From: a virus | DNA: 40,933 bases | Virus genome (UHGV): UHGV-0179541 | Reading direction: 5' to 3' (one strand) | Part shown: positions 23,589 through 28,081 of the stretch, in pieces | Position numbering within the stretch: position 1 is the stretch's first letter | Layout of the letters: each line of letters opens with the position of its first letter | Notes under the pieces: generated by a model | Told to the model about the DNA's origin: nothing | Seen by the model: the letters and a program-made list of their open reading frames with translations, nothing else | The model's database searches: none | Program-made: the position numbers and the translations under genes

Positions 23589-24005
23589 ATGGTTATGCTC
23601 GTAAAGGACGCCCTGATGACAAATAACTACATGAATGATTTCCTCAAATACTCACAGCCATATGTTCCAAAGGACTACAATCTTGCAAATGAATTTCATA
23701 GACGCCTTATATGCTGGATAAATGATTTTCACCGTGAACTTGAAGAAGAGTATGAGGTAGGAGGACAACTAGCTAGCTTTGGTAAAAACATTGAATTTCA
23801 TTTCACAGACATAAGCTACTGGAATCCATCATTAATTTCTTTCATTGGTACTCTGGAGGATGGCAGTCCTGTAGAACTTGTTCAGCATGTATCTCAAATA
23901 AATGTCCTGCTAATCCGAAAAAAACGCTTATGCTTAGAGACCCCTAAAAGACCGATTGGGTTTGCTGATTGGGGTGAATACGACTCCTTTAAAGGAGATA
24001 ATTGA
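23589..24005 (+). CDS. Hypothetical protein, AT-rich opposite-strand moron
   Basis: 138 aa on the opposite strand to all neighbours, with its own downstream hairpin. Confidence 0.5.
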   Translation: MVMLVKDALMTNNYMNDFLKYSQPYVPKDYNLANEFHRRLICWINDFHRELEEEYEVGGQLASFGKNIEFHFTDISYWNPSLISFIGTLEDGSPVELVQHVSQINVLLIRKKRLCLETPKRPIGFADWGEYDSFKGDN

Positions 24006-24463: not shown

Positions 24464-25078
24464 TCATACCAGTGCGGCTTTTGCTTTGGCGTAACGTTCA
24501 CGGCGGTCTTTAATGCCATTCTGTCCGCCGTTAATAATCTGCGTTACACGTTCCACGTCACCCGAATACATCAAGCAACCGCGTAACGTGAAGTACCACG
24601 CCGCCGAACGGGCCGCATGTCGCTCCTGCGTTAGCAATTCTGGTGTACTGACAAGGTCAAGTTTCAGCGCCGCACCACATTTGGTGTAGTTCTCACGGCC
24701 AGTAATTTGAAGCAGGCCACGACCGCGATATTTCCAGCCGTCACCCTGGCTGTTATTCCCCATGCGGTCACCGTAAACCAGATTGGCTATTTGCGGCTGG
24801 TGAGCGACCTGTTTACCATCGACACGCCCCAGCATTTCGCACTGGTACGGCGTCAGACGCTTACCAAAGGTTTTCTTCAGCCCTTCAACCGAGTAGTTAA
24901 AACTCTCTGCCAGCGAAGTAAATCCTGCAGACTCATGCCCGACTTGTGCAATGAACATGGCCTGATCATTAACTGCTGTAATACCAAACTCTTTCATTGC
25001 CGCATCAATGTGCGGAAACCAGCGTGCAGAAACATCGGCGCTGATACCAGCCGCCTGCTGAAATTGTGATTGGTTCAT
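24464..25078 (-). CDS. Endolysin, glycoside hydrolase family 19 (chitinase-like) lysozyme
   Basis: 204 aa with YRGRGLLQITGRENY motif. Confidence 0.75.
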   Translation of the reverse strand: MNQSQFQQAAGISADVSARWFPHIDAAMKEFGITAVNDQAMFIAQVGHESAGFTSLAESFNYSVEGLKKTFGKRLTPYQCEMLGRVDGKQVAHQPQIANLVYGDRMGNNSQGDGWKYRGRGLLQITGRENYTKCGAALKLDLVSTPELLTQERHAARSAAWYFTLRGCLMYSGDVERVTQIINGGQNGIKDRRERYAKAKAALV

Positions 25079-25359
25079 TAGTGCCTCAGATGGTCAACCA
25101 GACGTGCCACATTGCCTCTGACGGCGACCAGCACGGACAGGAAAATAATGTTGGCCACGATAGTGGCCCACGATGAATAAGGGTAGATACCGCACAGATA
25201 CGCCAGCGGTACGGCGCTATAAATGACCGTAAGCAGCCACGCTAAGCGAGATATCCACGGTCGATGTCTGGAGTCGCCACGACGATAAAACATCAGAGTA
25301 ATAACAACACAAGCACATAACAGCGCATTTATAGTTGCTGTCGGGTCATTTAGCTCCAC
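25078..25359 (-). CDS. Small membrane protein in the lysis cassette (holin or antiholin-like)
   Basis: 93 aa, two or three hydrophobic helices, between holin and endolysin. Confidence 0.45.
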   Translation of the reverse strand: MELNDPTATINALLCACVVITLMFYRRGDSRHRPWISRLAWLLTVIYSAVPLAYLCGIYPYSSWATIVANIIFLSVLVAVRGNVARLVDHLRH

Positions 25360-25732
25360 CTGAACCTCCCCGGCGCGTTATGAGCGCCACCAGCGAGCCG
25401 ATATCCTGATTATTCAGGAACGTCAGGATTTTAACGGCTAAAGCAGAGACGATTACGGCACCAATAGCATCCAGAGGTTTATCACTGTATCCGGTCAAGT
25501 TCGCCAGCTTGGAGCCAACCAACCCAGAGCAAAGGATCCCGGCAATATATGACACGATAAAATATGCTAGTCGGCGCGATGCACTCAGATCTGCTGCTGT
25601 TGCTATGTAGAATACAGCCCCTGCAAATGCGCCAAATACAACGCCGTAATCAGTTCCGGTCAGCAGTCCATAAATACTAGCGCCCGTTAGGGCTCCACCA
25701 GCTAACCCTGTGCCGGAAATCGGATCGGACAT
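25346..25732 (-). CDS. Holin
   Basis: Gly/Ala-rich TM helices; start refined to the internal ATG preceded by AGAGGTGG. Confidence 0.55.
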   Translation of the reverse strand: MSDPISGTGLAGGALTGASIYGLLTGTDYGVVFGAFAGAVFYIATAADLSASRRLAYFIVSYIAGILCSGLVGSKLANLTGYSDKPLDAIGAVIVSALAVKILTFLNNQDIGSLVALITRRGGSGGAK

Positions 25733-25840
25733 TAGCCACCTCTTATTGCAGTGAGTCCTCTCAGAAATAGAAATGAGAGGAATAAAAAAGGCCACCATTT
25801 GGCAGCCATAGAATTGATGTAATTATAACTAATTCATTAA

Positions 25841-26647
25841 CTATTTCTTAATGATGCTATTTAACATTTCTAATGCAAAAAGCAACATGGAGCTAATAAA
25901 ATACAATATAACCGCACTGGCAATCGCTCCAATTATAGCCTGGACACTCCAGTGAAAGTAATTTTTACCATTAATAACAAACTTAACACTAGGAAACAAA
26001 AAGTCGATAAGCTTAATTATTAATGGAATAGCAAAGCTCCATAAGTTCGAAAACAAAATAAAGATACAAATAAATGATAAAGCAAATGCACCATCGATTG
26101 ATAGTTTTGGCGCCAGTTTTGAGGCTGTCCATAAGCTAAGCAAAAAGCCAACTGTCACACCTGAAATCTGGATACTTAACATAGTCCAAGCTGTTCTAAA
26201 AAATCTAAATTTATTTTTGCACTTGTTAAGTAAATCCTGAATCGTAATCCATAACGAGTCAACCCACTCATTATCTTCCGATGCTACAATCATTGTGCTG
26301 CTATTTGAATTCCTCTCATCAATTCGTAGCTCCATCCAAGATCCATTCATCCTGTTAGACTGTCGACTTTGATAAGTTTCAATAGTAAAAATTATTTGAT
26401 CAATCCTAGTGGCCTGTCTAAAGTATTTCACAAGCTCACCGATAGAATCAACTTTATACCCCTTACCATCGAACAAAATAAAAAAAACACATTGAGCACA
26501 AACTTCCCTACTTTCCTTTTGAGCTTGCTCATTCATTTTAACGCAGCGTTCGACAATTGCCGTGCTTAAGCTAATCAAGCTATCTTCATTTATAGAAACA
26601 CCTGAAATATTCTTGCTTCTGTAAAAATATGACACTTTCGATTCCAC
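25841..26647 (-). CDS. AT-rich moron: protein with soluble N-terminal domain and C-terminal multi-helix membrane domain
   Basis: 268 aa; hydrophobic helices in the last ~110 residues; low GC versus flanking lysis and Q genes. Confidence 0.55.
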   Translation of the reverse strand: MESKVSYFYRSKNISGVSINEDSLISLSTAIVERCVKMNEQAQKESREVCAQCVFFILFDGKGYKVDSIGELVKYFRQATRIDQIIFTIETYQSRQSNRMNGSWMELRIDERNSNSSTMIVASEDNEWVDSLWITIQDLLNKCKNKFRFFRTAWTMLSIQISGVTVGFLLSLWTASKLAPKLSIDGAFALSFICIFILFSNLWSFAIPLIIKLIDFLFPSVKFVINGKNYFHWSVQAIIGAIASAVILYFISSMLLFALEMLNSIIKK

Positions 26648-26844
26648 TCCGCACCAGTCTCGATTTAGCGCAGGTTAACATAACCACTTCATTGGTAGAA
26701 GAAAAGAACTCTTCTTGTCAGAAAGCTACTGTGATATCCCTAAACCTGCAGATGATACAGAACAAAATTTAAGCATCAATTGTAGGCGATTTTAAATTCA
26801 CTTTACAGTTTAGGCTGCCAATTGGCAGCCGATTGAAGCAGAAA

Positions 26845-27114
26845 TCAATGAGTGCTCATCGATGAATTTTTTTCAGCGCCAATCTCACTCAAAAAAGCAA
26901 AACCTTTTGACGTTATCTCATTAGCAATCAATCCACCTTCGGCAGATTTGCTTCGTATAACATCGATAAAACCTATATCAGCAAGATCTGAAATAGCAAA
27001 GTTAACCTCTTTTGCTGAGAGATGAGGTAATGATGCAGCCTGAATTCTAGAATCCTTTGGCTGCAATTCATTCACTCGACGTAGTATTTCAAGATGGATA
27101 GAGGTCAGTTTCAT
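26845..27114 (-). CDS. AT-rich moron: small soluble protein, possibly DNA-binding
   Basis: 89 aa, strong ribosome-binding site (CAGGAG), first gene after the late terminator. Confidence 0.5.
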   Translation of the reverse strand: MKLTSIHLEILRRVNELQPKDSRIQAASLPHLSAKEVNFAISDLADIGFIDVIRSKSAEGGLIANEITSKGFAFLSEIGAEKNSSMSTH

Positions 27115-27196
27115 AATGTTCTCCTGTTTTTAATGTTGTTTTACAGAAAACATTATAACACATTGATTTTGATGTAGATTGAATAGAAAAAAACCA

Positions 27197-27221
27197 TAAA
27201 AAAACCTCGCAATAGCGAGGT
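27197..27221 (-). terminator. Rho-independent terminator (tR'-like), downstream of the putative late promoter
   Basis: Minus-strand hairpin ACCTCGC-TATT-GCGAGGT followed by a run of 7 T. Confidence 0.75.
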
Positions 27222-27268
27222 CGTAAAAATTCTTCAACGATAGATACACAAGCCCCATCGTTGAGAAA

Positions 27269-27297
27269 ATCTTATCCATATTTTTTGAAAAATACAA
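27269..27297 (-). promoter_or_regulatory. Putative late promoter pR'-like (TTGTAT-17-TAAGAT)
   Basis: Sigma70-like hexamers read on the minus strand between the Q stop and the terminator. Confidence 0.45.
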
Positions 27298-27328
27298 GTA
27301 TTATGTCATTATCTTCGGCGAAAATCGC

Positions 27329-28081
27329 TTATCTCGTCACCCTTCTCAATTGTGCTTCAGCGTAAGCTTCCTCCTGCCAGCACTTTGTAACCAGTTTATC
27401 AATGACATCTGCATATCCTTTGTACCACTGATAATCCGTCAGGTCTGGTACCAGCTTCTGGACATGAAGCCGCGCCAGTGTGGTTGGTAAACGGCTAAAC
27501 CGGTTTCCACTGCAACGCCCACAAATCTTATAAACAGGCGTGCCATGAAGCCGGGTTCTTTTTTCATCCAGGACAATACCTTTACCCTTACACCCTCTGC
27601 ACGCGGTGCTGACTTCTCCCTTACCATGGCAATGCTGACATAGTTCCTTCACCCACTCTTCCTTGATAACAGATTCCCCGCTTCTGGAGTGTTTCACCAC
27701 TTCGCGCAATACATTATGAAATCCAGTACCAGCACAATGCTCACAGCGAGCCTTACTTGCCGCAGACCTGGAATAATCAGCAAAGGCAAAATTCACAAGG
27801 TAAGGGATGATCTGTAACCGGGTTTCTTCACTCAATTTGTTCAATGTCGGGTTATCCAGTGCCATCGCGTAATTGAGCAGACCTTCAATCGCAAACTGAG
27901 GATCCTGAACACCAACTTTTGCCAGGAATAAGGCAAACCCAAGCGGTGCTTTCGACTGCACCATCCCCTGCGCAGCCATCACATCCGTAATCGTTAAACC
28001 ACCTGAGCCTGTCGCCGGTGCGTCATCGCTCAATTTTGGAGATTTTGGGGAGTAATATTTTGGTAAGGCTTCAAGGTTCAT
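27329..28081 (-). CDS. Q: Late antiterminator Q (zinc-finger type)
   Basis: CxxC...CxxC clusters; start refined to the ATG after GGAGAA, just past the upstream gene stop. Confidence 0.65.
   Translation of the reverse strand: MNLEALPKYYSPKSPKLSDDAPATGSGGLTITDVMAAQGMVQSKAPLGFALFLAKVGVQDPQFAIEGLLNYAMALDNPTLNKLSEETRLQIIPYLVNFAFADYSRSAASKARCEHCAGTGFHNVLREVVKHSRSGESVIKEEWVKELCQHCHGKGEVSTACRGCKGKGIVLDEKRTRLHGTPVYKICGRCSGNRFSRLPTTLARLHVQKLVPDLTDYQWYKGYADVIDKLVTKCWQEEAYAEAQLRRVTR

Follow-up and report, generated by a model that had tools for sequence, protein, structure and literature searches.

Two stacked cargo genes between the antiterminator gene Q and the holin of an Escherichia coli lambdoid prophage, and a candidate defense role for the membrane protein that one of them encodes

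The virus genome UHGV-0179541, a stretch of 40,933 nucleotides (nt) that we refer to throughout as the window, is an Escherichia coli lambdoid prophage, and between its antiterminator gene Q and its first holin gene lie two small genes on the minus strand (25841..27114). These are very probably two independent morons, neither of which belongs to the lysis machinery. The explanation that we favor for the whole, with less assurance, is that two separate morons have been stacked between the late terminator that follows Q and the holin gene, and that the second of them specifies a defense-type membrane protein. Module 1 would comprise an 89-amino-acid (aa) soluble protein with its own extended -10 motif and a strong ribosome-binding site, and module 2 a 264-aa inner-membrane protein whose gene ends in an intrinsic terminator. 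A perfect palindrome between the two genes would be the terminator-type hairpin of module 1, which would have lost its T-run where module 2, arriving with a hairpin copy of its own, was attached.

Read along the minus strand, the gene order is a DUF968 gene, Q, an AT-rich spacer of 214 nt, the 89-aa open reading frame (ORF; 27114..26845), a spacer of 209 nt in which the palindrome lies, the ORF of the membrane protein (its end is at 25841), a spacer of 108 nt, two holin-family genes, the gene for a GH19 (chitinase-like) endolysin, and Rz/Rz1. The upstream edge of the slot is Q itself (27329..28081, minus strand; PF03589, E 4.8e-53; phrog_127, E 1.1e-107), which is 250 aa long in the NCBI Prokaryotic Genome Annotation Pipeline (PGAP) annotation, read from the 100% identical record NZ_CP042969. 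The downstream edge is the first holin gene (25346..25732, minus strand; 128 aa, PF16931), which forms a tandem pair (25078..25732, minus strand) with a gene for a 93-aa 3TM holin of PF05449, the two overlapping by 14 nt. The chromosome of strain CFSAN061769 matches the 1.7-kb stretch around the two cargo genes at 100% identity, and at 99% identity or more, the stretch is found in 41 of 5,426 complete E. coli genomes. A large share of these 41 carriers come from poultry (chicken, duck, Gallus gallus) or are avian pathogenic E. coli (APEC) of serogroup O78. Both cargo genes are AT-rich, as the sequence-only reading of this DNA had said, with G+C contents of 38.1% for the 89-aa gene and 34.5% for the 264-aa gene against 48.5% for the window; the range for Q, the holins, and the endolysin is 48 to 52%, the holin and endolysin genes being at about 51%.

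Comparison with related prophages, a check proposed in the sequence-only reading, showed that the slot is indeed variable. E. coli prophages that share the holin pair, the GH19 endolysin (86 to 93% identity), and the Q-type backbone of the window hold other genes between Q and the holin, namely, genes for a 261-aa protein (L016), an 85-aa protein (L017 and L018), and a DUF5677 protein (L019), and in the Shiga toxin (Stx) phage phiSTEC1575-Stx2k (OQ243220), the slot is occupied by three tRNAs and stx2AB. The 261-aa and 85-aa proteins and the TrmB-like cargo of the Stx2k phage have no similarity to the window proteins. The cargo of the window is thus absent beside the same lysis genes, rather than being a conserved core lysis component, which was the outcome that the earlier reading had named as contradicting it. 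The claim that the two genes sit where Stx phages carry their toxin genes was also borne out. The Stx2k phage shares with the window the backbone of PerC, methyltransferase, LexA-like, RusA, KilA-N, DUF968, and Q genes, a segment of about 86% identity that covers the 3' end of Q and the late promoter, and the same cargo slot between Q and holin; the cargo of the window differs in being unrelated, with no tRNAs or toxin and with one small soluble and one membrane protein as its products.

Because related prophages fill the slot differently, the cargo fits the comparative definition of a moron (Juhala/Hendrix, as quoted in PMC2629481). Like the morons of lambdoid phages, these are extra genes between genes that are adjacent or differently separated in related phages, in a slot of high turnover; they have a base composition unlike that of the neighboring phage genes in the surrounding operon, and they come with promoter-like and terminator motifs of their own, with the qualification that the site ahead of the 264-aa gene is only a weak match to a promoter and that no T-run follows the hairpin behind the 89-aa gene. 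What sets the locus apart from lambdoid morons is that two unrelated morons are stacked here, with a T-less terminator hairpin at the joint, and that their independent expression is deduced from motifs.

The signals themselves begin directly after the Q stop codon with a late-promoter-like region (27269..27309, minus strand), identified at the level of motifs as ATGACA-18-AAAAAT by scan (27309..27280) and as TTGTAT-17-TAAGAT by eye. About 680 E. coli genomes have the segment 27199..27330 at 81 to 89% identity beside Q, and it includes a tR'-like intrinsic terminator (27203..27222, minus strand) that was found by a terminator scan and has an 8-bp stem, GACCTCGC-TATT-GCGAGGTT, followed by seven T's (folding energy, -13.8 kcal/mol; z, -3.0). 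Since the conservation of the late-promoter block stops there, the cargo starts exactly past the tR'-like terminator. Motif scan, conserved block, and gene order therefore agree with the earlier placement of the genes downstream of a pR'-like promoter and a tR'-like terminator and upstream of the holin. Past the terminator, a perfect extended -10 motif, TGTTATAAT (27152..27160, minus strand; a motif match only), precedes the start codon (ATG) of the 89-aa gene by 38 nt, and an AGGAG ribosome-binding site stands 6 nt ahead of that ATG. The homologs of the 89-aa gene in Klebsiella phages have TGGTAAAAT at the equivalent place. An inverted repeat (27161..27146 and 27123..27108) overlaps both the -10 element and the start codon of the 89-aa gene, and autoregulation by the 89-aa protein through this repeat is possible, if speculative. 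Upstream of the 264-aa gene is a weak sigma-70-like site, TTGATG-16-TATCAT (26752..26779, minus strand; 9 of 12 matches). In two other prophage loci, L003 and L011, a TGTTATGCT motif precedes the homologous start by about 50 nt, and the window has TGTTAACCT there, a weak correspondence. Between the 264-aa gene and the holin, the terminator scan found an intrinsic terminator, GGCTGCC-AAAT-GGTGGCC followed by six T's (25790..25807, minus strand).

In location and strand, both genes are placed as members of a Q-dependent late operon would be, downstream of Q, the late promoter, and tR' and on the same strand as the lysis genes. By analogy, Q read-through over both genes would be expected, and to that extent the earlier proposal of Q control stands. 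Because each gene has its own promoter-like signal, however, expression would not be by Q only. If they behave like other morons, both genes would be active in the lysogen, each from its own promoter, with Q-modified read-through added once the prophage is induced.

The larger gene (25841..26635, minus strand) encodes an inner-membrane protein of an uncharacterized family, with an N-terminal cytoplasmic alpha/beta domain (approximately residues 1 to 138) followed by three transmembrane helices. The sequence-only reading had described a 268-aa protein with a C-terminal multi-helix membrane domain. The domain is present, but the length corresponds to the mechanical ORF (26647..25841); PGAP starts the gene at a GTG at 26635, giving 795 nt, and the N termini in the family follow the pattern M-[SA]-x-Y-x-R, which corresponds to the same GTG. 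As family alignments and PGAP share this start, we take the product to be 264 aa. An exhaustive profile search returned 230 family clusters (clustered at 50% identity) at an E value of 1e-3 or less, 126 of them below 1e-30, and in nearly all of these clusters the protein is about 260 aa long and the alignment begins at residue 1. Some of the longer members (277 to 337 aa) are extended at the N terminus, and no Pfam domain was found in these longer members. An AlphaFold2 model built on a 90-sequence alignment has a predicted local distance difference test score (pLDDT) of 94.1 and a predicted template modeling score of 0.84. It consists of the alpha/beta domain (residues 1 to 138), a basic stretch (KCKNKFRFFR), and long helices at residues 149 to 177, 183 to 213, and 226 to 263. 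By hydropathy (Kyte-Doolittle score above 1.5), the last two helices are transmembrane and the first falls under the cutoff, and the distribution of charges puts the N-terminal domain on the cytoplasmic side. Near-invariant residues occur in both parts: D7, R54, D56, G59, E79, and W124 in the N-terminal domain and Q156, F188, N197, W199, P215, and F219 in the membrane part.

Searches for known relatives of the 264-aa protein gave little. It had no match in Pfam, NCBIfam, or PADLOC, and nothing recurred across 90 family members searched against Pfam and PADLOC. A sequence profile of the family found nothing in the PDB, Foldseek of the model against the PDB and BFVD gave nothing at an E value of 1e-3 or less, and tblastn against 50,697 phage records returned no match. 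The PHROG matches of both window proteins are families of unknown function, Rfam gave nothing above its gathering scores, and in the literature the protein accessions and PHROG identifiers are mentioned in no paper.

The sequence of the 264-aa gene is nonetheless constrained. Compared with a homolog of 77% identity (L003 6037..6831), the ratio of nonsynonymous to synonymous substitution rates (dN/dS) is 0.13 in both halves of the gene, which is thus under purifying selection. The synonymous divergence (dS) differs between them, at 1.48 for the N-terminal domain and 0.36 for the membrane half; a fourfold difference in dS at equal dN/dS indicates that the gene is a mosaic formed by intragenic recombination. 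Diversifying selection as the cause of the lower N-terminal identity was rejected on the same figures. The more recent ancestry shared with L003 runs from the membrane half of the 264-aa gene through the terminator and into the holin. In L011 (5880..6000), a prophage of the Hafnia/Citrobacter type, an in-frame stop in the N-terminal region leads to a 231-aa product being called from an internal Met, and the 231-aa form seen in phrog_30208 (a profile of 231 positions) and in P0003 corresponds to this truncated copy.

The smaller gene (26845..27114, minus strand; phrog_32916, E 2.9e-61) encodes the 89-aa protein, which was correctly described as soluble: its highest 19-residue Kyte-Doolittle score is 0.99, and it has no hydrophobic segment. 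Its sole relatives are 79-aa proteins with 37 to 39% identity from the Klebsiella phages ST405-OXA48phi1.2 and vB_VIPKPNMC05. There, the gene stands alone between Q and holin, in the layout terminator, TGGTAAAAT, ribosome-binding site, gene, terminator. We consider it a probable small winged-helix DNA-binding protein. In common with DUF2513 and the winged-helix regulators MarR, Lrs14, and HTH_45, the 89-aa protein and the Klebsiella homologs show the pattern L-x2-L-x3-G-[FY]-I ... T-x-K-G-x-x-F-L, but every match of the 89-aa protein lies under the curated thresholds. Against DUF2513 (PF10711), it scores 21.8 bits, below the cutoff of 29.6, and the Klebsiella homolog scores 17.5 bits; matches to HTH_45 and Lrs14 are likewise subthreshold, and a three-sequence profile run against solved structures matched MarR at an E value of 0.3. 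A single-sequence AlphaFold2 model (pLDDT 54) was unusable.

The palindrome between the genes had been reported as 16 bp. It is real and extends to 18 bp, GGCTGCCAATTGGCAGCC (26813..26830), beginning 14 nt past the stop codon of the 89-aa gene, with no T-run, and lying about 180 nt upstream of the 264-aa start. In context, its hairpin is predicted at -18 kcal/mol (z, -3.6). No longer perfect palindrome occurs in the window, but 29 of 200 shuffled windows hold one of at least 18 bp, and we rejected the idea that it is significant by itself. Its resemblance to the hairpin of the terminator before the holin is a different matter. The palindrome agrees with that hairpin (25789..25807; AGGCCACCATTTGGCAGCC, plus strand) at 16 of 19 positions (84%), and none of 100 shuffles gave two matches. 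The same kind of element, GGCTGCCA-N2-3-TGGYGGCC with a T-run, closes the homologous genes in L003 (6832..6940) and L011 as well as the unrelated 261-aa cargo gene in L016 (4656..4748), and the homology of the window to L003 and L011 begins about 55 nt upstream of the GTG at 26635 and continues through the terminator into the holin. In the simplest reading, the palindrome would be a T-less copy of the slot's terminator hairpin that marks the joint between the modules, and recombination may use the shared hairpin as a boundary for the swapping of cargo. The palindrome may instead be an operator, but no specific support for this role was found. The locus would in this way illustrate how the Q-holin slot, which is that of the Shiga toxin genes, exchanges its cargo, with unrelated genes sharing a hairpin and a T-less copy left at the joint.

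What the 264-aa protein does was approached through the surroundings of its family. In other enterobacterial prophages, homologs of 77%, 79%, and 51% identity lie directly upstream of the holin; these prophages (Citrobacter/Hafnia-type and others) have Q genes of three families and holins of two types, and the upstream neighbor is an N6_N4 methyltransferase gene or a 66-aa ORF. For 80 metagenomic loci, the ORFs flanking the family gene were called, the nearest two on either side, which gave 150 neighbor ORFs, and no Pfam family occurred in more than two of the 150. As no neighbor family recurs more than twice, the 264-aa family is taken to be a stand-alone, single-gene module. Nine nonphage loci (two genome contigs and seven other contigs) were inspected singly. 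The family gene follows a Gp49/HTH_37 (HigBA-type) pair in a Moraxellaceae metagenome-assembled genome (MAG; L020) and AbiEi/AbiEii in L025 and L027; in L023, it precedes the gene for a protein with a CAP12/Pycsar-type TIR domain, and in L056, it adjoins a Panacea-domain antitoxin gene. The remaining four have metabolic or unknown neighbors. Scattered among the 150 metagenomic neighbors are a type IIG restriction-modification enzyme, AbiEii, SoFic, two matches to dCTPase models, and resolvases. Together with the patchy distribution of the family and its occurrence within prophage hotspot slots, these surroundings form the pattern of an accessory island and lean toward defense.

Membrane proteins of prophages and phages with roles in exclusion or abortive infection include lambda RexB, T4 Imm, and P22 SieA. 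The lactococcal protein AbiZ is a membrane protein that acts on the lysis clock (cited in PMC11364771), and the 264-aa gene adjoins the holin gene. Like these proteins, the 264-aa protein belongs to the inner membrane, is specified by a single gene or small module of a mobile element, and probably is expressed in the lysogen. It differs from them in having a conserved cytoplasmic alpha/beta domain of 140 aa and no partner protein, and no PADLOC model, those of RexAB and the Abi families included, resembles it in sequence or profile. Two of the three candidate roles in the sequence-only reading, superinfection exclusion and abortive infection, are plausible candidates, and the third, lysis modulation, is the least likely. 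In the mechanism that we put forward, tentatively, the 264-aa protein would act by itself in phage exclusion or abortive infection; its cytoplasmic domain would sense an infection cue, and the three-helix membrane domain, probably as an oligomer, would compromise the inner membrane or block entry. Also tentative is the idea that the protein founds a new single-gene defense family, the 230 clusters of which range from enterobacterial prophages to soil and sediment bacteria, in which infection would be sensed by a cytoplasmic domain of TBP-like/AdoMetDC-like fold that would gate a three-helix effector in the membrane, and which would pass between lambdoid prophages through recombination at the hairpin shared in the Q-holin slot. 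If the protein were indeed a defense or exclusion factor, it would add to the known systems a compact single-gene family that has no detectable relative among them and for which a confident structural model exists; if it gave no phenotype, the two genes would be an ordinary prophage moron pair.

Several points weigh against the reading of two separately expressed morons with a defense function. Neither window protein matches PADLOC-DB 2.0.0 at an E value of 1 or less, and among the 90 family members, four unrelated PADLOC models were hit once each, with E values of 1e-4 to 8e-3. Many neighbors of the family gene are housekeeping genes (HSP90, AICARFT, malic enzyme, and NADH-antiporter subunits), with HSP90, purine biosynthesis genes, and transporters among those of the metagenomic loci, and as there is no baseline, we claim no enrichment of defense neighbors. 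The promoters are motif matches only, sites of this kind are no more frequent in the region than in shuffles, and that of the 264-aa gene is weak. Finally, the two genes are found together in all 41 E. coli carriers among the 5,426 complete genomes and in all 12 IMG/VR contigs, which could mean that they function together.

One alternative is that the genes are lysogenic-conversion cargo that serves the host in ways unrelated to phage defense, contributing, for instance, to envelope stress tolerance or to colonization or virulence in poultry-associated E. coli. The slot carries virulence cargo (stx) in other phages, many of the carriers are poultry or APEC O78 isolates, and members of the family are also found among ordinary chromosomal genes. 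The host bias may be merely clonal, however, and the family extends across metagenomes of soil, sediment, and groundwater, settings in which virulence toward animals has no bearing; the repeated adjacency to toxin-antitoxin and Abi modules fits defense better. We regard conversion cargo as unlikely.

A further alternative makes the two genes, which the sequence-only reading called a moron pair, one functional system, with the 89-aa winged-helix protein as a transcriptional regulator or antitoxin-like partner of a 264-aa membrane effector and the palindrome as its operator. The co-presence of the genes in the 41 genomes and 12 viral contigs suggests such a pair, as do the weak winged-helix similarity of the 89-aa protein and the 18-bp perfect palindrome, which has the classic shape of an operator for a dimeric helix-turn-helix (HTH) protein; small HTH regulators are, moreover, commonly encoded upstream of defense genes. 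However, the identity of the E. coli cassette is 99.5% or more everywhere, so that the joint presence goes back to a single recent lineage and does not amount to independent cases. In a two-gene system, neighbors would be kept across divergent homologs, and here, the divergent members of each family occur without the other: divergent members of the 264-aa family are never preceded by the 89-aa gene, and the Klebsiella homologs of the 89-aa protein have no membrane-protein neighbor. The palindrome, for its part, is about 180 nt from the 264-aa start, resembles a terminator hairpin that is found after unrelated cargo, and is of a length that is not rare by chance. The notion of a functional pair was therefore not upheld, and we consider a regulator-effector relationship improbable.

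A role of the 264-aa protein in lysis timing, as an antiholin-like or holin-modulating accessory that travels with the holin genes, is very unlikely. In favor of such a role, it is a multi-pass inner-membrane protein whose gene lies directly 5' of the holin in every prophage context found, with two holin families, and the 3' half of the gene, the terminator, and the holin have been co-inherited at about 90 to 95% identity with L003 and L011. Against it, unrelated genes stand in place of the 264-aa gene beside this holin pair and endolysin in the prophages of L016 to L019, homologs occur in nonphage loci, no lysis genes are adjacent in the Moraxellaceae MAG, a deltaproteobacterial MAG, or the 80 metagenomic loci, no holin or lysis family of Pfam or PHROG is matched, and a 264-aa protein with a 140-aa cytoplasmic domain differs from known holins and antiholins.

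Two further observations concern the prophage beyond the slot. In strain XB2 (L002; NZ_CP162303, 5001..7400), the cassette lies within a decayed prophage from which Q has been deleted. A frameshifted methyltransferase pseudogene abuts the late-promoter spacer, and the HNH and tail genes are fragmentary; both cargo genes and the lysis genes are nonetheless intact. A second variable slot for cargo is found in the window where a DUF6173 gene (23589..24005, plus strand; a 138-aa ORF, 129 aa by PGAP) with a G+C content of 38% separates Rz/Rz1 from the HNH-terminase genes. Related prophages have at this position a gene of the GrlR family, one of the YfbU family, or small hypothetical genes. The placement of this slot is similar to that of the Tai defense systems, which have been reported upstream of the packaging module in phi80-like phages (PMC11364771).

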